This document shows, one piece after another, positions 13,528-28,385 of a stretch of DNA of 64,000 bases. The notes below the pieces were generated by a model, which did not search any database, was not told the origin of the DNA, and saw nothing but the letters and a program-made list of their open reading frames with translations. The stretch covers positions 15,997 through 79,996 of the forward strand of contig CAYFYY010000004.1 in assembly GCA_964347475.1 (NCBI GenBank), read 5' to 3'. The translations under genes were made by a program, and so were the position numbers. This stretch comes from an uncultured Flavobacteriales bacterium (GTDB lineage: Bacteria > Pseudomonadota > Alphaproteobacteria > UBA8366 > JADFVY01). Numbering within the stretch: position 1 is the stretch's first letter; each line of letters begins with the position of its first letter.

Positions 13528-13604
13528 CGGAGTGTAGCTCAGCCTGGTAGAGCACCGTCTTCGGGAGGCGGGGGCCGGTGGTTCGAATCCACTCACTCCG
13601 ACCA
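13528..13604 (+). tRNA. tRNA-Pro (anticodon CGG)
   Basis: A 77-nt cloverleaf folded by hand: acceptor CGGAGTG/CACTCCG, D-arm GCTC-AGCCTGGTA-GAGC, anticodon arm CCGTC-TTCGGGA-GGCGG, T-arm GGTGG-TTCGAAT-CCACT, and an encoded ACCA end. Confidence 0.93.
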
Positions 13605-14103: not shown

Positions 14104-14496
14104 ATGAGCGACAAGACTTCTTCGATCCTGATCATAGATGACGACGAACTGCTGATCACGCTGCTGGAGCACAAGCTCGGTCAGCGTGGGCTGTCGGTGA
14201 CGAGCGCCAACGACGGACAGGACGGCCTCTTGGCGGCCATCGAAGAACAGCCCGATCTGGTGGTACTCGACGTCATGATGCCGACCATGGACGGCTTCGA
14301 AGTGCTGCGCCGCATGAAGGAACACGAGCGCACCCAGGATATTCCGGTCATCATGCTGAGCGCCAAGCGTCTCGAGGACGACGTGGTGAACGGACTGAAC
14401 CTCGGCGCCGCCGACTATCTCGTCAAGCCGTTCATGCCCGAGGAACTGCTGGTCAAGATCCAGAGGCTGCTGAGAGAAAAATGGATGCCCGCCTGA
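14104..14496 (+). CDS. single-domain response regulator (CheY-like receiver)
   Basis: 130 aa with receiver signatures ILIIDDDE, LVVLDVMMPTMDG, SAK and YLVKPF. There is no output domain. Its 3' end overlaps the next gene by 16 nt. Confidence 0.9.
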   Translation: MSDKTSSILIIDDDELLITLLEHKLGQRGLSVTSANDGQDGLLAAIEEQPDLVVLDVMMPTMDGFEVLRRMKEHERTQDIPVIMLSAKRLEDDVVNGLNLGAADYLVKPFMPEELLVKIQRLLREKWMPA

Positions 14497-15788
14497 CGCC
14501 CTGCGGCGGACGGCGTGGTTCGCTGCTCTGCGGGATTCTCTCGTTCGTCCTGTGGGCCGCACTCGCGGCGCCCGCCTCGGGCAGCGAATTCCAACGCGCG
14601 TACGAAGAGGCGGTCCAGGCCCAGCAGCGGGGCGATCTCGCAACAGCCGCGGTGAAGTTCGAAACGGCAAGCAGGATCGCCCCCGCAAGTGTCGACGTCC
14701 TGGTGCGGCTGGCCCTGGTCCGCGGGCAGCTGCGCGAATTCGACCGTGCGCTGTCGACCATTGACCGGGGTCTTCGCATCGCACCACGGAACACCGATCT
14801 GCGGCTGGCCCGTGCCAGAATCTTGGGCTGGGCCGGCCGGAATGGAGAGGCAATGCAGACGGTGGAAGCGGTCATCACTGAGCAGCCGCAGAACGCGGAG
14901 GCACGCGCGATCAAAGGGCGCATCGCGTTCTACGAGGGCCGGCTCGATGCGGCCGATGCCAGTTTCGCGATAGCGCTCAAGCTCGAGCCGGGCAATGCCG
15001 AAGCCGCAGCCGGACGGGCCGAAGTTGCCCGCGCCCGGCAGGGAGCTACGCGCGCGCATCCAGCCGGGGCGGCGACCGGCACCCCGCGGTGGCGCATCGA
15101 TGTCGGTTATCTGCACAGCCGGTTCTCCCGCGTGAACCTGGAAAACTGGCGCGAAGGGTTCATTCGTGTCGAGCATCGCTGGCCCAGCCGAACGGCGCTC
15201 AGCCTGCGCGTCGATACCAGCAATCGTTTCGGTTCGACGGAGACCGCCGTCGGTGCTGGCATCACGCAGCACTTCGGTGACGCCTTTACCGCCTATGCCG
15301 AGGGCTCGGTATCACCAGCGGCCGACTTCCTGCCGCGATGGACGGCTTTGGCGGGGGGGCGGCTGCGGGTTGCCGAAGGCGGCGGGCCGGTCGGGCCACT
15401 GCTGCTGGGCGCAGACCTCCGTCACAAAAGCTATGCGACAGGGGACATAGAGAATTTGGATCCGGGACTCGAGCTGTACGGATTCGATGGCAGGGTCTGG
15501 CTGACGGGCAGATGGATCAACGCGTTCGACCGTGAGGCCGATGCGCGCCTCGCCGGCTGGTTCGCCCGTCTCGACTGGCAGCTGGCTGCGCCATTCCGGG
15601 TGTTCGCAGGATTCAGCGACGCGCCGGAAACAGAGGCGGGCATCACGGTCGACACGCAGAGCACGTTCGGCGGCCTGGCATTCGACGTCACTCAAAGCGT
15701 CCGCCTGAATGCCAGCGCTGCACGCGAAGATCGTGAAAATTCATACATTCGCAATGTCTTTGGTGTGTCATTGACGCTGCATTTCTGA
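14481..15788 (+). CDS. outer-membrane TPR + C-terminal beta-barrel protein (PgaA/NfrA/YaiO-like polysaccharide export porin)
   Basis: It has a signal peptide and about four TPR-like helical repeats. From ~15086 the sequence turns amphipathic (RWRIDVGYLHSRF...) and ends in the OMP-type terminus SLTLHF. Confidence 0.7.
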   Translation: MDARLTPCGGRRGSLLCGILSFVLWAALAAPASGSEFQRAYEEAVQAQQRGDLATAAVKFETASRIAPASVDVLVRLALVRGQLREFDRALSTIDRGLRIAPRNTDLRLARARILGWAGRNGEAMQTVEAVITEQPQNAEARAIKGRIAFYEGRLDAADASFAIALKLEPGNAEAAAGRAEVARARQGATRAHPAGAATGTPRWRIDVGYLHSRFSRVNLENWREGFIRVEHRWPSRTALSLRVDTSNRFGSTETAVGAGITQHFGDAFTAYAEGSVSPAADFLPRWTALAGGRLRVAEGGGPVGPLLLGADLRHKSYATGDIENLDPGLELYGFDGRVWLTGRWINAFDREADARLAGWFARLDWQLAAPFRVFAGFSDAPETEAGITVDTQSTFGGLAFDVTQSVRLNASAAREDRENSYIRNVFGVSLTLHF

Positions 15789-15828
15789 CGGCAATGTGGC
15801 GACTGCGATTTGTCGAAAGGGTCCGGCA

Positions 15829-16950
15829 ATGACACTCCTGGCAACAATCTGGTGGGTCTCCGCCGTGCTGATGGCGGTCCCGCTGGTTATGCTGGGGATA
15901 TTGGTTCTTCGACGCCTGTATCAGGAACGCGCCGGTCGACGATTGGCGGAGCGCAAGAAGGCGTTGACGCTCTTGGCGATGATCTATCTGGAAGCGCCTG
16001 TCGACGACACACGAATCCGGGAAATCTGCGGTGACTTCAATCTGACTTTGCTGCACAAGATTGCGAGCGCGCTGGTTCAGGGAAGGCCTAGTAAAGCCCA
16101 GCTGCGCATCGACCTCCGCCTGCTCCGCGACATCATTCAGGACCTTCTGGGGTCGGTTCGCGGGGAAACCCGGGAACGGCTCGTCAATTTGCTGCGCACC
16201 ACGTTGGCGCGACAGTTCTGCCTGGCCGATCTGCGCAATCGCCGCGTCAACACGCGGATCAGCGCGATCGAGACGCTATCGCTTATCCCCGATCCGGAAG
16301 TCATCGACGCACTCCGCGACATGCTGGATGATCCGGAACCCGATGTTCGCCTCGCCGCGGCACGCAGCCTGGTCACTCTCGGGCCGAATCTGACACTGGA
16401 TGACCTCGTCGGAAAGCTGGATATCGGCGGCACGATCCGCTCGCGGTCGCTTCGCGACATCTTCCGCATTTTCGCGTCCTACAACGCCGCGGACCTGATG
16501 CTCCTGCTGGACCGCAATCCGCCGGACCTGACCGCCGCACTCGCCATCTATGGCCTCGGGACGGCGCAGGATTACGATGCCGTCTCAGTGATCGCCAGCT
16601 GCGCCAGCTGGCCATCGATCGATGTTCGCGCCGAAGCCATGCGCGCCCTCGCCGCAATTGGCCATCCTGGCGCGGAGCCGGCGGTCCTGCAGGGGTTGCA
16701 CGACGACGCCTGGGAGGTGCGCACCGAGGCCGCGATCTGCGCCGGACGCATTCCGCTGCCCAATGCCGTACCGCTTCTGCGCGAGCGGCTCGAGGATATC
16801 GAATGGTGGCCCCGCTTCCGCGCCGCCGAGGCCTTGCGCTCGATTGGAGATGCGGGCCGGCGGGCGCTGGAGGCCGCCCGGCTGGGGAGCGGACGATCCG
16901 CCAGCATTGCCGACATGATCCTGGCCGAGGAGAGGGCCGCGGCGGCATGA
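15829..16950 (+). CDS. membrane-anchored HEAT (PBS-lyase type) repeat protein
   Basis: It has an N-terminal TM helix (TIWWVSAVLMAVPLVMLGILVL) and then repeated HEAT units (DPEPDVRLAAARSL, IDVRAEAMRALAAIGHP, DDAWEVRTEAAICAGRI, WWPRFRAAEALRSIG). An alternative GTG start lies at 15796. Confidence 0.7.
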   Translation: MTLLATIWWVSAVLMAVPLVMLGILVLRRLYQERAGRRLAERKKALTLLAMIYLEAPVDDTRIREICGDFNLTLLHKIASALVQGRPSKAQLRIDLRLLRDIIQDLLGSVRGETRERLVNLLRTTLARQFCLADLRNRRVNTRISAIETLSLIPDPEVIDALRDMLDDPEPDVRLAAARSLVTLGPNLTLDDLVGKLDIGGTIRSRSLRDIFRIFASYNAADLMLLLDRNPPDLTAALAIYGLGTAQDYDAVSVIASCASWPSIDVRAEAMRALAAIGHPGAEPAVLQGLHDDAWEVRTEAAICAGRIPLPNAVPLLRERLEDIEWWPRFRAAEALRSIGDAGRRALEAARLGSGRSASIADMILAEERAAAA

Positions 16951-18401
16951 ATGTCGACGATCTCCTCGCCAACGATGCGCTGTCGTCGTATCTCGCGGCG
17001 ACGGCATGGTGGGCCAGTGTCATCATCCTTTGCACGATGTTGCTGCAGAATCTGCTCTACATGCTGCAGCTGTTGCTTGCATTCAAGGTCTTGCGGCGTT
17101 GGCGCTTCGTTCCCAATGCCGTTCGCGCGTGGCGCCAGCTGAGCGACACGTCGTTGCCGATTTCCCTGCTGGTCCCCGCCTACAACGAGGAAGCCACGGT
17201 CGTGGCCAACGTGCGATCGATGTTGGCACTGCATTATCCGCGGTTCGAAATCATTGTGATCAACGACGGCTCCAACGATGCCACACTGCAGACATTGATC
17301 GACAATTACGATTTGCGGCCCATCATCCGGGTTTACGAGGAAGAAGTGCCGCACCGCCCCATCAAGGGGCTCTACGGCTCATCGAGTTACCCCAACCTCA
17401 TCGTTGTGGACAAGGAGAACGGTGGCAAGGCCGACGCCCTCAACGCCGGCATCAACCTTTGCCGGCTGCCGATGTTCTGTGTCGTTGATGCCGACTCGAT
17501 CCTGGAGGCGGATTCGCTGCTGCGAGCGGTGCAGCCGTTCTCCGAGGATCCGGACCGCGTTATCGCGGTAGGGGGAACAATTCGACTTGCCAATGGCAGC
17601 GGCGTGCACGGCGGCCGCGTGGTTTCGGTGGGGCTCCCCACCAAGCTGCTGCCGTTGTTCCAGATCGTCGAATACCTCCGTGCGTTTCTCATGGCACGCT
17701 TGGCGTGGAGCGAATTCAATGCACTGATGCTGATTTCCGGCGCATTCGGAATCTTCAAGCGCAGTGCGGTAGTGGCCGCGGGCGGTTATTCGCACGGCAC
17801 CGTTGGCGAGGATATGGAGATCATCGTCAAGCTGCACCGCTACATGCGCGAAAAGGGCGAGGACTACGTCATTCGCTTCGTACCCGATCCAGTGTGCTGG
17901 ACGGAGGCGCCGGAGACCTTGCGCGTCCTGGGCCTCCAGCGCAAACGTTGGCAGCGCGGGGCGCTCGAAACGTTCTTCAAGCACATCCGCATGCTTTTCA
18001 ATCCCCGCTACGGCGTAGTCGGCATGGTAGGATTCCCGTACATCCTCTTGCTCGATGTGATCGGGCCTCCGGTCGAATTGCTCGGATATTTCCTGATTCC
18101 GGTGTTGTGGTATTTCGGCTTCCTCAGTCCGGAATTCTTCGCCGCGTTTCTGGCAATGACCTTCGCATGGGGTGTGACCATCAGCGTCGGCACGCTGGTG
18201 CTGGAAGAAATGGAGCTGAAACGTTTCCCGAAGACGCGACATCTGGTGTTGCTCGGATTCATCGCCGTTCTGGAAAATTTCGGATACCGCCAGATAAACA
18301 ATTTTTTCCGGGTCGCCGGGTACTGGCAGTACCTGTGCGGCAACAAGGAATGGGGCCGGATGACCCGTGCCGGCTTCCAGCAGGCGCACACGAAGGAATG
18401 A
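16947..18401 (+). CDS. processive family-2 glycosyltransferase (PgaC/IcaA/NfrB-like polysaccharide synthase)
   Basis: It has N-terminal TM segments and a GT-A core with INDGSNDAT and VVDADS. The processive-synthase motif QRKRW lies at 17937-17951, followed by a C-terminal TM bundle. The start ATG overlaps the HEAT gene stop (ATGA at 16947-16950). Confidence 0.88.
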   Translation: MNVDDLLANDALSSYLAATAWWASVIILCTMLLQNLLYMLQLLLAFKVLRRWRFVPNAVRAWRQLSDTSLPISLLVPAYNEEATVVANVRSMLALHYPRFEIIVINDGSNDATLQTLIDNYDLRPIIRVYEEEVPHRPIKGLYGSSSYPNLIVVDKENGGKADALNAGINLCRLPMFCVVDADSILEADSLLRAVQPFSEDPDRVIAVGGTIRLANGSGVHGGRVVSVGLPTKLLPLFQIVEYLRAFLMARLAWSEFNALMLISGAFGIFKRSAVVAAGGYSHGTVGEDMEIIVKLHRYMREKGEDYVIRFVPDPVCWTEAPETLRVLGLQRKRWQRGALETFFKHIRMLFNPRYGVVGMVGFPYILLLDVIGPPVELLGYFLIPVLWYFGFLSPEFFAAFLAMTFAWGVTISVGTLVLEEMELKRFPKTRHLVLLGFIAVLENFGYRQINNFFRVAGYWQYLCGNKEWGRMTRAGFQQAHTKE

Positions 18402-18608
18402 TGTGATGCCGCGCTACGTGCACTGTTGGCCAGATCCGGCTCGCAAGGCCGCGGGGTCGGCTCGGTGGCCGCGCGGGAAGGTCGGGCGCTCGCTTCGCGA
18501 CGTTGTCGATCGGACGCATCGGCCGGGCTCCGACCTGCCGATGCTGAGCATGAAAGCTGGCGCGTTGTGCCGCCTGGGACAGCTACGTGCGAAGGAGTGA
18601 CGGCGGCC

Positions 18609-21600
18609 GTGCGTATCGCAAAATCAATTAACAGCAAGTTCCTCGTGGTCACGTTGCCGTTTGTGTTCCTGTCCTCGATGGCGACGATATTCGCAGTTGG
18701 AACGTTGCAGGTCCGCTGGGAAGAGGGGCATCTGCGAGACCTGATGCGGAGTCATGCTCTGACCCACAGCGAGACCTTGGCCGTTCATATGCGCAGCAGC
18801 GATACCTACAACACCCGAATCATGCTGTCGTATGCTCTCTCCGATATCATCGCGGCGTCGCAGGTCAAGCGGGTTGTCCTACTGAATGCCGCCGACGAGG
18901 TTCTTTTTACCGCCGGACAGTTGCGCGAGAGCTCCGACCGGTACCTGTCCGTCGAGATACCTATTGTCACTGACGAGAATTCCGTCACTCGCGAACTTGG
19001 GCGGTTGCAGATTTTCGCAGATGGCGTCGACCCTTGGCCGATCCTCATCGAGAATACGGTCAACTATTCGATTCTGCTGGTCATCGTCATGGCTTCGATT
19101 ATCGCCAGCATTGCGCTGACCACCCATTACGTCGTCAACCGCCCGCTCGGGCAGTTCCTGGCAGCGGTTCGCACCTCGCAGCCTCTCGCCAAACGACGGT
19201 CGGCGGCCTTCAACCCGCCAGATGAATTGGGCGAGGTGATGGACGCCTACAACGAGATGATGCAACAGCGATTGACCGACGAAGAGACGCTGCAACAGAA
19301 CGAGCATCGCCTGCGTTCGATTCTCGAATCGAGCCCGGTCGGTATTTCCATCGTCACGCTGCATGGTACGCCCTTGTATGCGAACGCCCGCATCCTCCAG
19401 ATGCTTGGCCTTTCCCGCGATGAGTTCTTTCGCTCCAATGCAAGAGATTTCTATGTCAATCCCAGTGATCGGGATGAGATCGTCGAAATTCTGCAGACCG
19501 GCCAGGGCGTGGAAGATGTCGAGGTCCATCTTCGGCGCACAGGAAGCTCGCCCTTCTGGGCCCTGCTCTCGTTCATGCCAACGGATCTGTACGAGGGCGA
19601 GTGCTTTCTCGTCTGGCTCTACGACATCAACGAACGGCGCCTCATCGAGGATGAACTGCATGCGAGCCGGGAGCTTCTGGAAGATCAGGCGCACGAGCTT
19701 CGCGATCTCGCCGATACCTTTGCCGTCCAGAAATCCCGTGCCGAACAAGCAACCGCGGCGAAGAGCGCATTCCTCGCCAACATGAGCCACGAGATCCGTA
19801 CGCCTATGAATGCCATTCTTGGCTTGATCGACCTGACAATGCAGACGGAACTCACCGCCGAACAGGCGAACAATCTGACCAAGACCCGGACCGCGGCCCG
19901 TTCGCTCCTGGAAGTCATCAACAACATTCTCGATATCTCGAAAATCGAGACAGGGAAATTGGAGCTCGAATCTGCGCCATTCGACCTCAACGATACGCTG
20001 AACGGCGTTTCGACCATGCTGGCAGCGGAGGCCGAGCGCAAGAAGCTTGAACTGTTCTTCGTTTCGAAGCCGGACGTTCCGAGATTCCTGGTTGGCGATA
20101 CGCTACATCTCGGACAGGTTCTTCTGAATCTCACCAACAATGCGGTCAAGTTCACCGACGTCGGCAGCATCGTGCTGCGTACCTGGGTCGAGGAGCTGCA
20201 GACCGACTCGGTTACGCTGGGCTTTTCCGTGACGGACACGGGAATCGGCATCAGCGAGGACGTGCAGCCGGGCCTGTTCAAACCTTTCGTTCAGGCCGAC
20301 GACTCGACGACGCGGAAATACGGCGGCAGCGGTCTGGGGCTCGTCATTTCACGGCGCATCGTCGAGCTCATGGGCGGAACGATCGTTCTCGAGAGTCGAC
20401 CGGCTAAGGGGAGCACTTTCAGCTTTACCGCCCAGTTCGGCCTGCAGGAATTGGATTGGGCACCGCCCCCGCTGCCGGCTCGGGCGCCAAGCGTCCTTTT
20501 GATCGCAAGCAGCCGTGAGACCCGCCGAATTCTTCCGGATGCGCTCGCAGCCTGGGGTATGACCGTTCATTCGGCGAATTCGACGACGACGGCCCTGGCA
20601 GAGATCGACCGGCTGGCGCAGATCGCTGAACCGTGCATCGACGTTTTGTTGTTCGACTGCAAGGTTCAGGGTACGAATTGCGTCGAAGCGGCGCGCAAGA
20701 TTACGGATGAACGCAAGCTCGGGTCGGTGGCGAAGGTCTTCCTCCTGCATAGCCAGCACCACGAGGAATTGCGAACGAGCGCCGAGGATTTGGAGCTGTG
20801 TGAATTTGTCGCCAAGCCCGTGCACGTGCAGGTTCTGGTTGACAGCATCCGCGGCGTGGCGCGACAGGATGACGCCGAGGGAAAGCTGGCGACCGAGCAC
20901 GTAGCTCCAGCCATGAACCAGTTGCGGCCAGAGCTGCAGGGTGCCCGGATTCTTCTTGTCGAGGACAACGAAATCAATCAGGAGGTCAGCCAGGCTGTCC
21001 TCAAGCGGGTGGGGCTGCTCGTCGAGACCGCGAACAACGGCAAGGAGGCAGTCGACGCGGTCATTGCCGACGCAACCCGGTTCGACGCGGTATTGATGGA
21101 TGTGCAGATGCCGGAGATGGATGGGCTGCAGGCCACCCGGGCAATCCGGGAACATCCGGGCTTCGCCGAGTTGCCGATCATCGCAATGACCGCACACGCG
21201 TTCGCCGAGCAGCGGCGCGATTGCCTCGATGCGGGCATGAACGACCACATTCCGAAGCCGGTCGAACCGGCCCGCCTGGTCGCGGCGCTCAACAAATGGA
21301 TCAAGCGCGGTCGCAGGTCATCGGAAGAACCGGCGATCGAAGCACCGGCGGATGCGGCCGAGGATGGCGCCTCCGTTTCCGACGAGCTTCCCGGTATCGA
21401 TGTTGCCGGTGCCCTCGAGCGGCTCGATGTCACGAGGGAATTTTTCGACATGCTGCTCAAGAAATTCCATAGCAGGCACGAGGGCGTGGGCGCCGAGATC
21501 CAGGATGCGTTCGCCCGGTCCGACCTGCGGCGTGTCGAGGAAATCGCGCACCTTTTGAAGGGGATGGCGGGCAACCTTTCGGCCGATGATCTGTCGGCCG

Positions 21601-21728
21601 CGGCGGCACGCGTTGAGGCGGCGGCCCGCGACGCGGACGCGGAGAATCTGCCGGAACTTTTGGCGCGCCTGCAAACCGCTCTCGCCCCCGTCCTCGAGTC
21701 GGCTTCACAAGCCGGTGGCGACTCCTAA
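18609..21728 (+). CDS. hybrid sensor histidine kinase (TM-sensor-TM-HAMP-PAS-HisKA-HATPase-degenerate REC-REC-HPt)
   Basis: It has the H-box FLANMSHEIRTPMNAILG, ATPase G-boxes (DTGIGI, GGSGLGL), a receiver (ILLVEDNEINQE...LMDVQMPEMDG...PKP) and an HPt (HLLKGMAGNL). The start is placed at the GTG at 18609, 11 nt after GAAGGAG. The ORF is open from 18426. Confidence 0.9.
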   Translation: MRIAKSINSKFLVVTLPFVFLSSMATIFAVGTLQVRWEEGHLRDLMRSHALTHSETLAVHMRSSDTYNTRIMLSYALSDIIAASQVKRVVLLNAADEVLFTAGQLRESSDRYLSVEIPIVTDENSVTRELGRLQIFADGVDPWPILIENTVNYSILLVIVMASIIASIALTTHYVVNRPLGQFLAAVRTSQPLAKRRSAAFNPPDELGEVMDAYNEMMQQRLTDEETLQQNEHRLRSILESSPVGISIVTLHGTPLYANARILQMLGLSRDEFFRSNARDFYVNPSDRDEIVEILQTGQGVEDVEVHLRRTGSSPFWALLSFMPTDLYEGECFLVWLYDINERRLIEDELHASRELLEDQAHELRDLADTFAVQKSRAEQATAAKSAFLANMSHEIRTPMNAILGLIDLTMQTELTAEQANNLTKTRTAARSLLEVINNILDISKIETGKLELESAPFDLNDTLNGVSTMLAAEAERKKLELFFVSKPDVPRFLVGDTLHLGQVLLNLTNNAVKFTDVGSIVLRTWVEELQTDSVTLGFSVTDTGIGISEDVQPGLFKPFVQADDSTTRKYGGSGLGLVISRRIVELMGGTIVLESRPAKGSTFSFTAQFGLQELDWAPPPLPARAPSVLLIASSRETRRILPDALAAWGMTVHSANSTTTALAEIDRLAQIAEPCIDVLLFDCKVQGTNCVEAARKITDERKLGSVAKVFLLHSQHHEELRTSAEDLELCEFVAKPVHVQVLVDSIRGVARQDDAEGKLATEHVAPAMNQLRPELQGARILLVEDNEINQEVSQAVLKRVGLLVETANNGKEAVDAVIADATRFDAVLMDVQMPEMDGLQATRAIREHPGFAELPIIAMTAHAFAEQRRDCLDAGMNDHIPKPVEPARLVAALNKWIKRGRRSSEEPAIEAPADAAEDGASVSDELPGIDVAGALERLDVTREFFDMLLKKFHSRHEGVGAEIQDAFARSDLRRVEEIAHLLKGMAGNLSADDLSAAAARVEAAARDADAENLPELLARLQTALAPVLESASQAGGDS

Positions 21729-23549: not shown

Positions 23550-25001
23550 ATGCATTCGTACGAACGCCTATCCGGTGCGTCCGGACGGCGCGTGTTTTAT
23601 CGCGCAGAACGATTCAAGGCGCGGGATCTGTTTCCGCTGGCGACGGCCAAGGTCCAAATCGACGATACCCTTCTGGCGCTGGAAGACCTAAGCATGACCG
23701 GTTTCAGTGCGGTTGCTCCCGGTGCTGCGCTCTGGGCTCCGCGCATTGGCGAGGAGTTTGCCATCCGCCTCCTGCTTGACGATATGGTGCTGCACGAGGG
23801 GCGTGCGAAAGTATGTCGAATTGGACGGCAGAAATGCGGCGTGAGTGTCGGCCTCGGGCTGACGTCGGACTACCTTGACATCGCCGACGTCATAAGCAAA
23901 CGCAACCGCCATCTCCTCGATCTCGAAATCGGCCACGGCCTGGTGACCGATGCGGGTCTGGTCGATCCCGAATACAGAAAGCTCAGTGCCGACGTCGTAC
24001 ACCTCTTGCGGAACTTCCGCGCGATCCTCGAGCGACACGAGTTGCGCGGCAACGGTTATTCCTCCCCCCCGCCGCACAGTCCGATCGACGAAGCGCTGCA
24101 GCTTTGTGAGGAACGGATCATTCCTTCTTGGCGCCAGCACTGGGAGCACGCCAACAGTCTCGTCGAACCCGTGATGTCCGATCCGGACCGCTTGCGGGCG
24201 ACGAAACGATTCACCGAGCTCGTCGTGACGCCGGAACTCATGGACGGGCCCATCTGGCGCCGCAGTTACGAGAAGCCACTCGGTTACCCTGGCGATTACC
24301 AGGTGATGAATTATGTCTATGCCTGGCGTCGCGAAGGTGATTCCGCGACCGGCAAGCTGCTTCATCGCGCGGGACTCGAGGTTGCCGAGTGTATCGGCAC
24401 GCGCATGCGGATGATCGAACAGATGATCGCCCACGAGATCGCGGCCCGACCGGCCGGCGAGGTCACGCATATTGCCAGCATTGGAAGCGGCCCGGCGAAG
24501 GAAGTGTCGAATTACCTTCAGTCCGACGAAATTCCGGGTGCCGTATCGTTTACTCTCGTCGACCAGGAACATGAGGCGCTCGAGCAGGCGTACAGCGATA
24601 TCTACCCGCAGACGACGCGGCACGGGGGCCGGGCCGCCGTGCAGTGCCTGAACATCTCGTTCGTCGACCTGGCAAAGAAGAACCGGGTGTTCCCCGGCGT
24701 CGGGCCGCAGGACTTCATCTACAGCGTGGGCATCGTAGACTATCTGGCCGATCATAGGGCACGCAGCCTGGTCGCGTCTCTGTACGACCGACTCGCGCCT
24801 GGCGGGCGGCTGGTCATAGGAAACATGCGCAGGACCAGTCTCAGCAATCTCTGGCCGATGGAGTTCATCTGCGACTGGAGCGTCTATTATCGCGACGAGG
24901 CCGAGATGTGGGCCATGGTAGAGGGATTGTCGGCAAAGTCGCGCAAACTAGAGACCGACCCGACCGGGCGCGTGTACATGCTGACTCTGCGCAAACCCTG
25001 A
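23550..25001 (+). CDS. PilZ domain / class I SAM-dependent methyltransferase fusion protein
   Basis: The N-terminus carries both canonical PilZ c-di-GMP motifs: RRVFYR (RRxxxR, 23586-23603) and DLSMTG (DxSxxG, 23685-23702). The C-terminal half has Rossmann MTase motifs (IASIGSGPAKE, LVDQE, FIYSVGIVDYL, LAPGGRLVIGN). Confidence 0.75.
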   Translation: MHSYERLSGASGRRVFYRAERFKARDLFPLATAKVQIDDTLLALEDLSMTGFSAVAPGAALWAPRIGEEFAIRLLLDDMVLHEGRAKVCRIGRQKCGVSVGLGLTSDYLDIADVISKRNRHLLDLEIGHGLVTDAGLVDPEYRKLSADVVHLLRNFRAILERHELRGNGYSSPPPHSPIDEALQLCEERIIPSWRQHWEHANSLVEPVMSDPDRLRATKRFTELVVTPELMDGPIWRRSYEKPLGYPGDYQVMNYVYAWRREGDSATGKLLHRAGLEVAECIGTRMRMIEQMIAHEIAARPAGEVTHIASIGSGPAKEVSNYLQSDEIPGAVSFTLVDQEHEALEQAYSDIYPQTTRHGGRAAVQCLNISFVDLAKKNRVFPGVGPQDFIYSVGIVDYLADHRARSLVASLYDRLAPGGRLVIGNMRRTSLSNLWPMEFICDWSVYYRDEAEMWAMVEGLSAKSRKLETDPTGRVYMLTLRKP

Positions 25002-25059: not shown

Positions 25060-26472
25060 TCAGCCGGGCAACTGAAGGGACTGCTGGGTGTCGAAAATCG
25101 TGCGCTCTGGCGGCAGGCGCATCGTCACGACGGTGCCCTGCCCCGGCTTGCTGTCGATGGTCAGTTGCCCGCCGTGCCATTCGATGATCTTTTGCACGAT
25201 GGGAAGACCCAATCCGGTGCCACCGCGTGCGCTGGTGTATGGGTGCGCGGCCCGATAGAATGGTTGCGTTGCGTTCCCCAAATCTTCCGCCGCCATGCCG
25301 ATCCCGCTGTCGGTCACGCTCAATACGCATGCGCCGGCCTCGTCCATCCATAGGGCGACGGAAACCTCGCCGCCCTTTTCGGTGAATTTGACACCGTTCG
25401 AAACCAAATTGATGACCACCTGCCGAAGCCGTCCGGGGTCGGCCATCACGACCACGCTGGGCTGCGGCAGCGAAGCCGAAATCTTGAGGCCATGCGAGAT
25501 ATCCGGGACCCGGAACATCCGCAGGCACTCATCGACGATCAGGCACATGTCGACCTCGCATTCGGCGAAGGACAGCTTTCCCGCCTCTGCCGTCGCCAGA
25601 TCGAGCATATCTCCGATGATGCTCAGGAGGTGGCTGCCGCTGGAATAGATGTCTTCAGCGTAGTTCTTGTAACGGGGCGTGCCCAGCGGGCCCAGGATCT
25701 CTTCCTTGACGATCTCGGAGAATCCGATGATCGCATTGAGCGGCGTACGCAGTTCGTGGCTCATGCTGGCCAGGAATTCCGTCTTTGCCTTGTTTGCCGC
25801 GTCCGCCCTGCGGCGCAGCCGCTCGGAGGCCGCCTTCTCGTAAGTCAACAAGCGAGTCTGTAGGTGATTCAGGCGCAGGTACAGTTCCTGCACGTAGTTG
25901 ACAACGCCCCCGACTGCGATCGCCATTGCCAGGAAGAAATTGTTGCTCAGCAACACCTCGTATGGAACGGGGTTCAGGACAAACGCCGACAACTGATAGA
26001 TGGCGAACAGGATCAGGGAGACGATCAGCGAATACACGTGATGGAGACGCAGCACGCTGGCGCAGTAGATCACCACCATGATCAGGCCCGCATAGTACCA
26101 GTAACTTGCGGGGGGTTCACCGAACACCGTCATGGCAATGATGCCTATGCCCGCCGCAAACATTGCAAGCGACAGTCCTGCCTGAGCGCAGCGCACGAAG
26201 TTCCGGTGATAGGTCAGGGCAAATACCCCGAAGACGATCGGGAACACAAAGCCGAACCGGACAGCCCAGAACTGACTGACCACCTCGGGCATGAGCAGTG
26301 CGTCAAGCACGCCGAAAAGCCCGTACAGAAACGCGCCGGCCAGCAGGCCGAGCCGTATGACCGGACGCGAATCGAGCATGTGTCTGCACAGAAACCGCCG
26401 TTCCGCGATTCTGTTCTTGAACCGCAGGCTGAACATGTTCAGCTCTGAGAGGTTCGCCTTCCAGACGCTCAT
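25060..26472 (-). CDS. membrane sensor histidine kinase (about 6-TM N-terminal domain, HisKA-HATPase)
   Basis: The first ~200 aa are hydrophobic multi-TM. These are followed by the H-box FLASMSHELRTPLNAIIGFSE and then N/G1/G2 boxes (NLVSNGVKFT, DSGIGM, GGTGLGLP). No receiver domain is present. Confidence 0.88.
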   Translation of the reverse strand: MSVWKANLSELNMFSLRFKNRIAERRFLCRHMLDSRPVIRLGLLAGAFLYGLFGVLDALLMPEVVSQFWAVRFGFVFPIVFGVFALTYHRNFVRCAQAGLSLAMFAAGIGIIAMTVFGEPPASYWYYAGLIMVVIYCASVLRLHHVYSLIVSLILFAIYQLSAFVLNPVPYEVLLSNNFFLAMAIAVGGVVNYVQELYLRLNHLQTRLLTYEKAASERLRRRADAANKAKTEFLASMSHELRTPLNAIIGFSEIVKEEILGPLGTPRYKNYAEDIYSSGSHLLSIIGDMLDLATAEAGKLSFAECEVDMCLIVDECLRMFRVPDISHGLKISASLPQPSVVVMADPGRLRQVVINLVSNGVKFTEKGGEVSVALWMDEAGACVLSVTDSGIGMAAEDLGNATQPFYRAAHPYTSARGGTGLGLPIVQKIIEWHGGQLTIDSKPGQGTVVTMRLPPERTIFDTQQSLQLPG

Positions 26473-26705: not shown

Positions 26706-28385
26706 TCAGGCGCTGCGGACCTCACCCAGGAATCTCTCGACCTCGCGGCGCAGTCCCTCAGCCTGCTGCGCCATCTGCTGCGACGCACTCAGTACCTGTC
26801 CCGCTGCCAGGCCGGTTTCACCAACTGCCTTGGAGACGCTTTCGATATTCTGGTTCACGTCCTGGGTGCCGCGCGCCGCCTGCTGGACGTTGCGGGCGAT
26901 TTCCTTTGTCGAGATCCCTTGCTGTTCGACCGCGGACGAAATGGTTGTCGCGATTTCGTTGACCTCGCCGATGATCGCGCGAATCTTCCCGATCGCGCCG
27001 ACCGCGTCGGTGGTTTCCTCCTGCACGGAAGCGATCTGCTGCGAAATTTCCTCGGTTGCGCGTGCGGTCTGGTTGGCAAGGTTCTTGACCTCCTGGGCGA
27101 CGACGGCGAAGCCCTTGCCGGCCTCGCCGGCGCGGGCCGCCTCAATGGTCGCATTGAGGGCAAGAAGGTTTGTCTGTCCGGCTATGTCACTGATCAGTTT
27201 CACGACGTCGCCGATCTTCTCCGCTGCTTCAGCCAGCCCCTGAACCGTCGTGTTGGTCGCCTCGGCTTCGGCAACCGCGTTCTGCGCGATCTTCGCGGAC
27301 TGCATGACCTGGCGGCCAATCTCCGCGATCGAAGCAGACAACTCCTCCGCCGTTGCGGCTACCGTCTGTACATTTGCGGCAGCCTCCTCGGACGCAGTGG
27401 CCACGTTGGTCGACTGGCGGTTTGTCTGTTCCGCCGTTGCCGACATTTGCTGCGCCGTCACCTGCATCTGCGTCGCGGCGGAGGACACGCCTTCCACGAC
27501 CTTCTTGACCTGCACTTCGAAACGGTCCGCCATCTCGCGAACGGTCTGGCGCCGCTCCTCGGACGCGCGCTGCTGGGAGGCCGCCTGGACCTCCTCAAGC
27601 CGCCGCTTATCCACCGCGTTGTCCTTGAATATCTGCACCGCGCGTGCCATGTCGGCGACCTCGTCGCTCCCGTCCTGCCCAGACACGGCGACATCGGTAT
27701 TGCCGGCGGCGATTTCCGTCATGACCTGCGTAAGGCGCGAAATCGGGCGCGTGATGGTGCCGCCGACGAAGTACAAGACAAGGACCAGCGCTCCGGCGAA
27801 GACTCCCCCCATAACCAGGGCGATCTGCGACGAATCGGCAACCTCGTCGTTCAGCGCCTCGCTCGAGCGGGCCACGTCCAGCACCACCAGATTCTGGAGT
27901 TCCGCCAGGAGATCAACAAGACCTTCGCCGTATTCGTCGATATCGTCGTCGAACCGGGCAAAATCCTGACCGCCCCCGCTTTCGATCGCTTGCACGAGTT
28001 CGAACCGGATCACGCGGTCCGCAATATTGGTCAGCTCGGCAACCTCCGCCGCAAGTTCCGGCTTGTTTGCCCGTTCGGCAACGGCATCGACGATGTGCTG
28101 GTTATCCCGCAACTCACTGATGCCCCGATCCATCTTTTCGAGGCGTTCCTCGTAGACGTAGCCTTCGTCCGCATCGACGATCGAATCGGCCGCGGCAAGC
28201 ACCAGCTCGAGGGTGGATACGCGGAGGTCGCCCAGCGTCTGAGCTTCCTGCAGCATCAGCTGGTTGGCATTGGTTACGCGTTTAACGGCGGTGCTCGCGT
28301 CCCAGGCAACGAAAATCAGTGCAAACAGAACGACGACTGCAACCGTCCCCATGAAAACCAGTTTGCGTCTGATGGTCCATTTCAT
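26706..28385 (-). CDS. methyl-accepting chemotaxis protein
   Basis: 559 aa: TM, ligand-binding region, TM, HAMP, and a highly conserved signalling hairpin ([37 protein letters not shown]). Confidence 0.92.

Follow-up and report, generated by a model that had tools for sequence, protein, structure and literature searches.

A conserved receiver, TPR/barrel, HEAT-repeat and GT2 operon as a candidate phosphorelay-gated exopolysaccharide synthesis system

Gene content and layout of the locus

The window (the whole 64,000-nucleotide stretch of DNA that was analysed) carries at 14104-18401 four tightly coupled + strand genes, which encode a receiver (REC) protein, a TPR/beta-barrel protein, a membrane HEAT-repeat protein and a membrane GT2 enzyme (Table 1). 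The end of the REC ORF overlaps the barrel gene by 16 nt, the ATG of the latter being at 14481; the barrel gene stops at 15788, giving a protein that ends in SLTLHF; and the HEAT stop and the GT2 start form an ATGA (16947-16950, a 4-nt overlap). There are two candidate starts for the HEAT ORF, GTG at 15796 and ATG at 15829, the second of which (giving 373 aa) is used by an independent gene call on an identical contig, L081. A preliminary description of this DNA had reported these four genes. Its coordinates were all correct when re-derived, including the overlaps, the stops and the QRKRW motif, and each protein matched the profile expected for it (Response_reg, TPR_19/YaiO, HEAT_2 and Glyco_tranf_2_3). 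Its gene list was incomplete: it had overlooked a hybrid histidine kinase with REC and Hpt domains that starts 207 nt downstream. It had also claimed that PgaB/PgaD, MshEN, PilZ and GGDEF/EAL are lacking, and we agree, as profile searches found no PilZ, GGDEF, EAL, MshEN, PgaB-like or PgaD-like domain in the four proteins, nor in the neighbours tested (12.9-40.8 kb of the window). The window holds no sugar-nucleotide or polymer-modifying genes, and the product is thus unconstrained.

Table 1. Genes, domains and motifs of the locus, numbered from the first letter of the window
Feature	Position	Strand	Basis
Stand-alone receiver (REC, CheY-like), 130 aa	14104..14496	+	Pfam Response_reg 3e-30
REC phospho-acceptor Asp56	14269-14271	+	
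TPR/beta-barrel outer-membrane export component, 435 aa	14481..15788	+	TPR_19, TIGR04390, AF2, Foldseek
Nine TPR-type helices, residues 31-192	14571-15056	+	
14-stranded beta-barrel, residues 203-434	15087-15785	+	
Single-pass inner-membrane HEAT-repeat protein, 373 aa	15829..16950	+	HEAT_2, TM helix, independent gene call
HEAT protein TM helix, residues 9-27	15853-15909	+	
Membrane-integrated processive GT2 synthase, 484 aa	16947..18401	+	Pfam, NCBIfam, AF2, Foldseek, motifs
GT2 motif NDGS	17262-17273	+	
GT2 motif DAD	17487-17495	+	
GT2 motif ED	17808-17813	+	
GT2 motif QRKRW, residues 331-335	17937-17951	+	
GT2 C-terminal tail WGRMTRAGF	18351-18377	+	
Hybrid sensor histidine kinase	18609..21728	+	Pfam, NCBIfam, gene call on L081, TM segments
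Kinase domain PAS	19308-19625	+	Pfam
Kinase domain HisKA	19758-19955	+	Pfam
Kinase domain HATPase	20094-20435	+	Pfam
Kinase domain REC	20949-21290	+	Pfam
Kinase domain Hpt	21453-21686	+	Pfam

The synthase, the exporter and the HEAT protein compared with known systems

The GT2 protein matched Glyco_tranf_2_3 (2e-22), Glycos_transf_2 (1e-21) and Chitin_synth_2 (2e-7) in Pfam, and its DGS, DxD, ED and QRxRW motifs are invariant across 84 orthologs. The chain ends at residue 484 with no additional domain. Foldseek searches with the AF2 model (pLDDT 84.9, pTM 0.85) returned hyaluronan synthases (1.8e-15), BcsA, yeast chitin synthases and plant CesA as the best matches, these full-length processive synthases being matched over the full length. 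Judged by motifs and predicted fold, GT2 belongs with the processive membrane synthases, although processivity itself is inferred; with D, DxD, ED, QxxRW and TM helices it has what the synthase-dependent class demands of its inner-membrane GT2. The preliminary description had proposed the same assignment, and a grouping with non-processive or LPS-type transferases, which would have refuted it, was not seen.

The best whole-chain structural matches are hyaluronan and chitin synthases (CvHAS, XlHAS1, Chs1/Chs2; E 1.8e-15, TM ~0.58), which share QxxRW, ED and a conserved W-G...R motif with GT2. The identity is nevertheless just 14-17% and the GT2 model has fewer TM helices. Moreover, in these enzymes the W-G...R motif lies between interface helix 3 and TM5, whereas in GT2 it is at the extreme C-terminus, and they function without HEAT, REC or outer-membrane partners. 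In hyaluronan synthases the gating-loop motif WGTRG/WGTSGRK is essential (PMC11750622).

The barrel protein has a hydrophobic N-terminus with a Sec signal peptide (~residues 1-32), and an AF2 model with pLDDT 88.3 in which nine TPR helices precede a 14-stranded barrel; its last residue is Phe. It matched TPR_19 (6e-12) and met the YaiO family models at full length and above cutoff (TIGR04390, YaiO family outer membrane beta-barrel: 7.6e-34, positions 1-230/230, 117.7 bits against a cutoff of 32; PF19413: 36.5 bits against 23.9). Its best whole-chain structural match was E. coli BcsC (9b8a, 3e-11), and OmpG (TMt 0.65-0.72) was the best match of the barrel part. These data uphold the porin with signal peptide, TPR and final Phe that had been proposed, for which the absence of a predicted barrel would have been fatal, and they satisfy the second requirement of the synthase-dependent class, an outer-membrane barrel with a periplasmic TPR scaffold. 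The barrels of PgaA and BcsC have 16 strands and that of AlgE 18; that a polysaccharide passes through the smaller barrel of 14 strands is an assumption.

The HEAT protein matched HEAT_2 over four stretches (3.8e-38). The basic stretch RRLYQERAGRR directly follows its TM helix, and the HEAT solenoid is predicted to face the cytoplasm; this arrangement of helix and basic stretch would bring HEAT into the same compartment as REC and the GT domain. All 50 evaluable orthologs have an N-terminal TM helix, as do the HEAT proteins of Haloarcula, Deinococcus and Mesorhizobium. The sole candidate for a HEAT-GT2 fusion (P0065) seems to stem from a frameshift artefact.

The closest known systems each differ from this gene set. 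Bcs has the same processive GT2 fold, but GT2 of the window has no PilZ domain and there is no BcsB in the window, so that the combination of BcsA, PilZ and BcsB is not met (TIGR03030, CelA family, 46.1 bits against 699.1; PRK11498, 22.7 against 992). The exporter also differs from BcsC, which has many more TPR helices. NfrAB likewise encodes a GT2 synthase alongside a TPR-containing outer-membrane protein. However, there is no meaningful similarity between NfrB and GT2 (BLASTP E 0.004 over 52 aa), and the NfrB-type GT2 with a C-terminal MshEN domain is not found, GT2 being without MshEN; the barrel profile aligns weakly to the NfrA TPR region (probability 23%). In the uncharacterised E. coli yaiO-yaiX-yaiP-yaiS cluster, a YaiO-family barrel gene lies beside the GT2 gene yaiP, and E. 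coli YaiO meets TIGR04390 as does the barrel domain here. Yet YaiO is 257 aa long, lacks a TPR region and has no BLASTP-level similarity to the barrel protein; YaiP is 26% identical to GT2 in the N-terminal GT-A part only; and the cluster has an acyltransferase and a deacetylase but no HEAT or REC genes.

The comparison with PgaABCD/IcaADBC bears on a rival explanation, namely that the locus is a divergent Pga/Ica system in which GT2 makes PNAG, the barrel is a short PgaA and REC and HEAT are accessory regulators, without any new principle. The likenesses are real. PgaC_IcaA (TIGR03937) is the best NCBIfam match of GT2 (1e-39) and E. coli PgaC its nearest characterised relative (28% identity over 302 aa of the GT domain, E 4e-32); both proteins combine an N-terminal TM helix, a GT-A domain and C-terminal TM helices with an ENxY...W(x4)R layout and a short W...R tail; a small membrane partner is encoded directly beside the synthase; the exporter is a TPR-barrel fusion; and CE4 polysaccharide deacetylase genes lie near 7 of 80 related loci. 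Nonetheless, the TIGR03937 score of 136.6 bits is far from the equivalog cutoff of 422.3, and structurally GT2 stands no further from hyaluronan and chitin synthases than from any other synthase. Neither PgaD/IcaD nor PgaB/IcaB is encoded in 12.9-40.8 kb: a 373-aa TM-HEAT protein stands where Pga has PgaD, there is no PgaB deacetylase, and in place of a c-di-GMP element there are a REC protein and a phosphorelay. The exporter scores 24 bits against the PgaA model (TIGR03939, cutoff 366.65), in the TPR region only, and hhalign to E. coli PgaA aligns 92 columns, again TPR only; its YaiO-type barrel has two strands fewer than that of PgaA and is unrelated to it in sequence. The exporter's likeness to PgaA and NfrA thus holds for the TPR region and fails for the barrel. 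We consider this explanation improbable.

Conservation of the operon and its receiver

HEAT and GT2 are direct neighbours in 67 of 71 loci. Where enough upstream sequence was available (65 loci), REC was present in 59 and the complete four-gene order in 46. Dozens of genomes in which GT2 is only 43-68% identical show this order again, far above chance, and the survey of gene neighbourhoods shows it kept across phyla; an order conserved in no related genome, which the preliminary description had named as refuting, was therefore not the case. At least 579 species-representative genomes carry the module, with examples from rhizobial symbiosis-associated plasmids, sphingomonads, Verrucomicrobiota, Bacteroidota, Firmicutes, Deinococcus and a haloarchaeon, and the same gene coupling is seen in the annotated Mesorhizobium ciceri pMESCI01, Haloarcula halophila and Deinococcus radiophilus. 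The barrel is missing in Firmicutes and Haloarcula, which have no Gram-negative outer membrane, as expected if it is an outer-membrane exporter; some loci of Bacteroidota, Gemmatimonadota and Acidobacteriota also lack it. The conserved core is therefore REC/HEAT/GT2, and the barrel is an add-on in most, not all, of the outer-membrane-bearing lineages sampled.

The REC protein has no output domain. D13, D56 and K108 occur in all 65 operon-linked orthologs (100%) and Y105 in 89%; position 86 is Thr in 71% and Ser in the window protein. The product of the first gene invariably has a phosphorylatable REC domain at its end. It is a fusion in other lineages (Hpt-REC-REC, in at least six loci, or REC-GGDEF-REC), and Hpt is a small separate gene in 15 loci.

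The kinase ORF spans 18426-21728, the likely GTG start at 18609 being inferred from the gene call on L081. Two TM helices flank a periplasmic segment of ~120 aa, and the NCBIfam BarA-like match (9e-132) is below cutoff. An intact acceptor pocket with its acidic pair, Asp, Thr/Ser and Lys, together with a linked His kinase/Hpt donor, meets the definition of a phosphorelay terminal receiver, and the hybrid kinase is the probable phosphodonor of the stand-alone REC; phosphotransfer itself is inferred. The activation mechanism had been called unknown, which no longer applies in the sense of a wholly blank route. Of 58 large related loci, 35 have a kinase core or an Hpt domain within 8 kb. In the other 23 neither was found within 8 kb and REC stays with HEAT-GT2, so that the tie of REC to HEAT-GT2 is closer than its tie to any kinase. 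The lack of a linked kinase at some operons counts against the phosphorelay gating proposed below.

Proposed gating of the synthase and the remaining alternatives

Our best reading is that the operon is a new variant of synthase-dependent exopolysaccharide secretion in which a phosphorelay-fed REC and HEAT replace PgaD, PilZ or MshEN, direct control being inferred. We give a probability of about 60% to the locus being a synthase-dependent exopolysaccharide machine of undescribed type, gated by a phosphorelay. The claim of a non-canonical variant made in the preliminary description is borne out by the missed cutoffs and absent domains above, and we found no paper describing the four-gene operon.

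In brief, GT2 would polymerise a nucleotide-sugar into a linear glycan and thread it across the inner membrane, and the TPR/14-stranded YaiO barrel would take the chain in the periplasm and pass it through the outer membrane. The HEAT solenoid would sit in the cytoplasm beside the GT domain as an obligatory synthase partner, in the position that PgaD has toward PgaC, with the stand-alone REC as an on/off subunit. The hybrid kinase may sense a periplasmic or PAS-detected cue and send phosphate via His-Asp-His(Hpt) to REC Asp56; phospho-REC would then bind the HEAT/GT2 complex and license synthesis. It might do so through the invariant C-terminal W-G-x-M-x-R-x-G-F tail, whose motif is similar to the gating loop of hyaluronan and chitin synthases. 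Control of the synthase after translation would then lie with a phosphorelay in place of c-di-GMP. The scheme builds on observed domain identities, folds, catalytic motifs, topology, gene-order conservation and an intact phospho-acceptor site. Physical contacts among REC, HEAT and GT2 are inferred, with neither an experiment nor a complex prediction to support them, both AF2 models being of single chains; also inferred are which way the regulation runs, what the tail does and which polymer is made, possibly one that contains HexNAc.

If a phosphorelay were wired straight onto the synthase, production of the biofilm matrix would have a second control logic beside c-di-GMP, and the abundant orphan single-domain receivers would gain a new kind of target. 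Given its presence in so many genomes, the module may make a common yet unrecognised matrix or surface glycan. With four genes and a kinase the system is compact, and its hypotheses are open to genetics, polymer chemistry and cryo-EM. A more specific and clearly speculative version is that REC/TM-HEAT/GT2 is an ancient, horizontally mobile synthase of Bacteria and Archaea that phosphorylation, and not c-di-GMP, turns on directly: phospho-REC would dock on the membrane-anchored HEAT solenoid and so free the invariant WGxMxRxGF tail for closure over the active site. Were such docking true, it would be the first case of a two-component receiver domain as an exopolysaccharide synthase subunit.

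Alternatively, REC may not act on the synthase at all, being a phosphate sink or shuttle for the two-component circuitry nearby or an indirect controller of transcription, with HEAT alone as the structural partner of GT2. Single-domain receivers often serve as phosphate sinks; many loci are surrounded by kinases, extra receivers and Hpt proteins; and there is no physical evidence for REC-HEAT binding. This is difficult to reconcile with a REC gene that stands first in the operon with translational coupling to its neighbour, in bacteria as well as in Haloarcula, that is kept with HEAT-GT2 in the 23 large loci without a nearby kinase or Hpt, and whose orthologous domain is always the last of the fusions, beside the HEAT gene. 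We therefore regard it as unlikely.

Direct gating by phospho-REC must also be set against activation by c-di-GMP, with HEAT or the HEAT/GT2 interface as an unrecognised receptor (as in PgaCD) and REC tuning a distant diguanylate cyclase. The well-studied synthase-dependent systems (Bcs, Pga, Alg, Pel and Nfr) are all gated by c-di-GMP; however, GGDEF, EAL, PilZ and MshEN are absent from this locus and from most proteobacterial loci, no c-di-GMP receptor of the kind that activates the synthase-dependent class post-translationally (PilZ, PgaCD interface, PelD or MshEN) was identified in the five proteins and tested neighbours, a cryptic site not being excludable, and the module is also found in a haloarchaeon, in whose lineage c-di-GMP signalling is not known, which leaves this the least credible of the explanations. 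A part for c-di-GMP in some lineages is still possible: GGDEF is found fused with the orthologous REC in two Firmicutes, Thermovenabulum (L073, AGDEF) and a Bacillaceae MAG (L076, in which the GGDEF domain is degenerate), and a PilZ-domain gene follows GT2 in three Verrucomicrobia loci.

Layout of the operon and its surroundings

We class the operon at 14104-18401 as a locus for synthase-dependent exopolysaccharide secretion. Its new part is a pair of proteins, a stand-alone receiver (REC) and a HEAT-repeat protein with a transmembrane (TM) helix, which replaces the c-di-GMP receptor; contacts between REC, HEAT and the synthase (GT2) are inferred. The ORF list reproduced all of the coordinates that the preliminary description had assigned to the four genes, and an HMM check of their products with Pfam and NCBIfam returned the Response_reg, YaiO, HEAT_2 and Glyco_tranf_2_3 matches that it had predicted. 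The barrel gene starts 16 nt inside the REC ORF, and the GT2 start codon overlaps the HEAT stop as ATGA. For HEAT, an independent gene call on the identical public contig chose the ATG at 15829 (373 aa). A fifth same-strand gene, absent from the preliminary description, follows GT2 after a gap of 207 nt and encodes a hybrid histidine kinase with two TM helices around a ~120-aa periplasmic segment.

Features of the operon and its surroundings in the window
Feature	Coordinates	Strand	Domains and matches
tRNA-Pro(CGG), 500 nt upstream of REC gene	13528-13604
REC ORF, 130 aa	14104-14496	+	Response_reg 3e-30 (Pfam)
Barrel protein, 435 aa, ends ...SLTLHF	ATG 14481 to 15788	+	TPR_19 6e-12; TIGR04390 7.6e-34
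HEAT protein	GTG 15796 or ATG 15829 to 16950	+	HEAT_2 3.8e-38
GT2, 484 aa	ATG 16947 to 18401	+	Glyco_tranf_2_3 2e-22; Glycos_transf_2 1e-21; Chitin_synth_2 2e-7
QRKRW motif of GT2, residues 331-335	17937-17951	+
Hybrid histidine kinase	18426-21728, likely start 18609	+	PAS, HisKA, HATPase_c, REC, C-terminal Hpt
ORF, 483 aa	23550-25001	+
Second histidine kinase	25060-26472	-	HisKA, HATPase
Methyl-accepting chemotaxis protein	26706-28385	-

An Rfam search of the 500-nt leader and the GT2-kinase gap at E <= 1 gave tRNA-Pro alone, with no riboswitch or other RNA element, and a scan for sigma-70 promoters and terminators had an outcome no different from that with shuffled sequence. Genes in 12911-34766, a stretch that starts beside the tRNA-Pro(CGG) gene, have a GC3 of 0.73-0.79, lower than the 0.86-0.90 of the flanks. 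The lower GC3 and the start beside a tRNA gene suggest that the region was acquired horizontally long ago. The tRNA-Pro 3' end is repeated nowhere in the window and no integrase was seen among the window genes tested, and the reading as a genomic island is left open. A few kb downstream of the operon lie a second histidine kinase and a methyl-accepting chemotaxis protein, for neither of which was a link to the operon established. The 483-aa ORF at 23550-25001 looked PilZ-like by eye at its N-terminus, with RxxxR...DxSxxG-like strings (RRVFYR...DLSMTG), but was rejected as a PilZ protein: Pfam found no such domain at E <= 0.05, and the sole Pfam matches were weak ones to a SAM-methyltransferase in the C-terminal half.

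Conservation of the module and its receiver

In a scan that took a single genome from each species, relatives of GT2 were present in at least 579 genomes. We surveyed the context of the best 80 of these loci by searching stop-to-stop ORFs with the window proteins; because of these ORF definitions and the pairwise-profile searches, the neighbour counts are lower bounds. The linkage of the genes is tight and ancient. Among the best 80, HEAT immediately preceded GT2 in 67 of the 71 loci with enough sequence. Where at least 3.3 kb of upstream sequence was available (65 loci), REC was present in 59, the YaiO barrel in 53 and all four genes in the window's order in 46; the RR-porin-HEAT-GT2 order is conserved across phyla.

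The four-gene form was found in Alpha- and Gammaproteobacteria, Verrucomicrobiota and Bdellovibrionales, and REC-HEAT-GT2 without the barrel in nine loci from Symbiobacteriaceae, Thermovenabulum, Bacillaceae, Gemmatimonadales, Bacteroidota and Acidobacteriota. The pattern recurs on annotated plasmids, where the gene order is kinase, RR, RR, YaiO, HEAT, GT2, Hpt in Mesorhizobium ciceri (pMESCI01); RR, HEAT, GT2 in the archaeon Haloarcula halophila, with an 8-nt RR/HEAT overlap; TPR, HEAT, GT2 in Deinococcus radiophilus; and HEAT, GT2 in Paenibacillus cellulosilyticus. Where there is no Gram-negative outer membrane (Firmicutes, Haloarcula), the barrel is missing, as an exporter of that membrane should be; it is also absent from some Bacteroidota, Gemmatimonadota and Acidobacteriota loci. 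The best named relatives, among the matches listed, were Rhodospirillales-type alphaproteobacterial MAGs. Orthologous modules are plasmid-borne in Mesorhizobium, Erythrobacter, Devosia, Deinococcus and haloarchaea. Two further families recur near the module, neither of them in the window: a ~540-aa protein without a Pfam match (11 loci, often just upstream of the REC gene; e.g. L031:2983-4596) and a ~650-aa protein with a CE4 polysaccharide deacetylase domain (PF01522, 4e-5; 7 loci; e.g. L019:3047-4984).

HEAT is a membrane-anchored cytoplasmic domain, with one N-terminal TM helix followed by RRLYQERAGRRLAERKK. The cytoplasmic placement of the solenoid is a prediction from the positive-inside rule, given the basic stretch after the TM helix. 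Helix and basic stretch are common to all 50 of the 50 evaluable orthologs, and the annotated Haloarcula, Deinococcus and Mesorhizobium HEAT proteins also carry them. The first gene encodes a phosphorylatable receiver without an output domain. In 65 operon-linked orthologs, D13, D56, G64, K108 and P109 are 100% conserved and Y105 is 89% conserved, while position 86 is Thr in 71% and Ser in the window. On the strength of the conserved D13/D56/K108 pocket, REC is predicted to be a working phospho-receiver and not a pseudo-receiver, phosphotransfer itself being inferred.

The first gene takes three forms: bare REC, as in the window; Hpt-REC-REC, in six related loci (L017, L024, L035, L042, L056 and L063); and pseudo-REC-GGDEF-REC. 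The last, (pseudo-)REC-GGDEF-REC, precedes HEAT in Firmicutes (L073:5107-6666 and L076:5308-6939), where the GGDEF motif reads AGDEF in L073 and is degenerate in L076. The placing of GGDEF upstream of a terminal receiver is an unusual order. In every case the REC orthologous to the window protein is the last domain, adjoining the following gene. These GGDEF fusions, together with a PilZ gene that follows GT2 in three loci from Verrucomicrobia, leave a hidden dependence on c-di-GMP possible in some lineages. Neither the window nor the archaeal version offers support for it. The PilZ gene (L048:9387-10187 and two other Verrucomicrobiota loci; 267 aa; PF07238, 2.3e-6) is directly downstream of GT2 and could serve as a c-di-GMP input particular to that lineage.

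Of 58 large loci, 35 have a kinase core or Hpt no more than 8 kb away. A small Hpt gene is present in 15 loci, and in 14 of them it closely follows GT2 in convergent orientation. The synthase module stands without a nearby kinase in 23 of the 58 large loci. REC is thus tied more closely to HEAT-GT2 than it is to any kinase, an argument for REC as part of the synthase machine and against its belonging to a signalling cassette that is adjacent by chance. The view that REC is a mere phosphate sink is disfavoured by its position in the operon and by its retention in loci without a kinase.

Synthase and exporter

GT2 has a processive fold with intact catalytic motifs. The AlphaFold2 model (22-sequence alignment; pLDDT 84.9, pTM 0.85) is a confident one, made up of a GT-A domain with interface helices, a long helix at the N-terminus and a helical bundle at the C-terminus. 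In Foldseek searches of the PDB it matched the Chlorella-virus and Xenopus hyaluronan synthases over their full length (best 1.8e-15), followed by BcsA, yeast Chs1, Candida Chs2 and plant CesA; in a sequence search of the PDB, BcsA ranked first (1e-5). The motifs N-D107-G-S, D181-x-D183, E288-D289 and Q331-R-x-R-W335 are invariant across 84 orthologs, archaeal ones included. These matches and motifs uphold the earlier assignment of GT2 as a processive synthase. Also invariant in the 84 are two family-specific motifs, E-N-F-G-Y-R-Q (443-449) and, at the extreme C-terminus, W469-G-x-M-x-R474-x-G-F. The latter resembles the WGTRG/WGTSGRK gating loop of hyaluronan synthases, which enters the active site and is essential for catalysis (PMC11750622). 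The C-terminus of E. coli PgaC (...ENRYEHN...RWVSPDRG) has a comparable layout, and among characterised relatives PgaC stands closest, with 28% identity over 302 aa (E 4e-32); similarity to NfrB was not meaningful. The best NCBIfam match, PgaC_IcaA, scored 136.6 bits against a cutoff of 422.3. From the model matches, invariant motifs, likeness to PgaC and below-cutoff score, GT2 is a processive synthase of PgaC-like architecture that lies outside every named equivalog.

The exporter is a TPR-barrel with a signal peptide. It matched the full profile of TIGR04390 (YaiO family outer membrane beta-barrel) with 117.7 bits against a cutoff of 32. In the AF2 model (pLDDT 88.3), residues 1-32 are disordered and hydrophobic, fitting a Sec signal with an A-P-A|S site, and are followed by nine TPR-type helices (31-192) and fourteen beta-strands (203-434), in agreement with the earlier reading of signal peptide, TPR and barrel. 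The best whole-chain Foldseek match was the cryo-EM structure of E. coli BcsC (3e-11); the best match to the barrel was the 14-stranded porin OmpG (TM 0.65-0.72 on target). In profile comparisons with E. coli PgaA and NfrA, the TPR helices alone align. The architecture is thus that of PgaA, BcsC, NfrA and PelB, whereas the barrel belongs to a different, smaller family. BLASTP found no similarity to E. coli YaiO, and yaiO-yaiP was set aside as a close model, the relation being at family level only.

Two public protein clusters were rejected as fusions. P0065 (820 aa, HEAT+GT2), from a single 2.9-kb contig, has an Arg/Gly/Pro-rich linker typical of an out-of-frame read; P0171 (521 aa, REC+TPR+YaiO) was taken as a merged gene call across the overlapping gene junction. 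Both are most likely frameshift or merged-gene-call artefacts, unfit as Rosetta-stone evidence.

A plain PNAG variant is disfavoured: the scores fall far short of the PgaC and PgaA model cutoffs, and neither PgaB nor PgaD is present. Full-text searches of open-access papers and bioRxiv brought up, among the hits listed, no description of a REC/barrel/HEAT/GT2 module, which may have been described elsewhere. YaiO came up in the literature found there merely as an E. coli PCR marker or as an outer-membrane protein in a list.

Proposed mechanism and polymer

The operon is linked to a His-Asp-His relay. We infer that the kinase would pass phosphate via its own Hpt domain to Asp56 of REC. REC~P would then bind a HEAT/GT2 complex and license polymerisation, an inference made without a complex prediction, possibly through control of the C-terminal W-G...R tail of GT2. 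The TM helix of HEAT may add to the few that GT2 itself has, in the way that PgaD does for PgaC, and the chain would presumably exit through the TPR-barrel. The haloarchaeal HEAT_PBS protein OE2401F was rejected as a precedent for CheY-HEAT binding and is a weak lead only: it is needed downstream of CheY-P, but pull-downs tie it to CheD and CheF and not directly to CheY.

The identity of the polymer is unknown. There is a weak pointer to a HexNAc-containing glycan, since GT2 has its nearest relatives in PgaC, hyaluronan synthases (HAS) and chitin synthases and shares the W-G...R motif with them, and since CE4 deacetylases occur in seven related loci. In one Rhodospirillales/Kiloniellales MAG (L012:7974-9932), the orthologous GT2 ORF reads through, with no intervening stop, into a bactofilin domain at the C-terminus (PF04519 1.4e-10, residues 563-636); in another (L059:6856-8814), such an extension is inferred from ORF length only. 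Fusion of the synthase to a bactofilin hints that the polymer is made at particular sites in the cell, perhaps at a pole.
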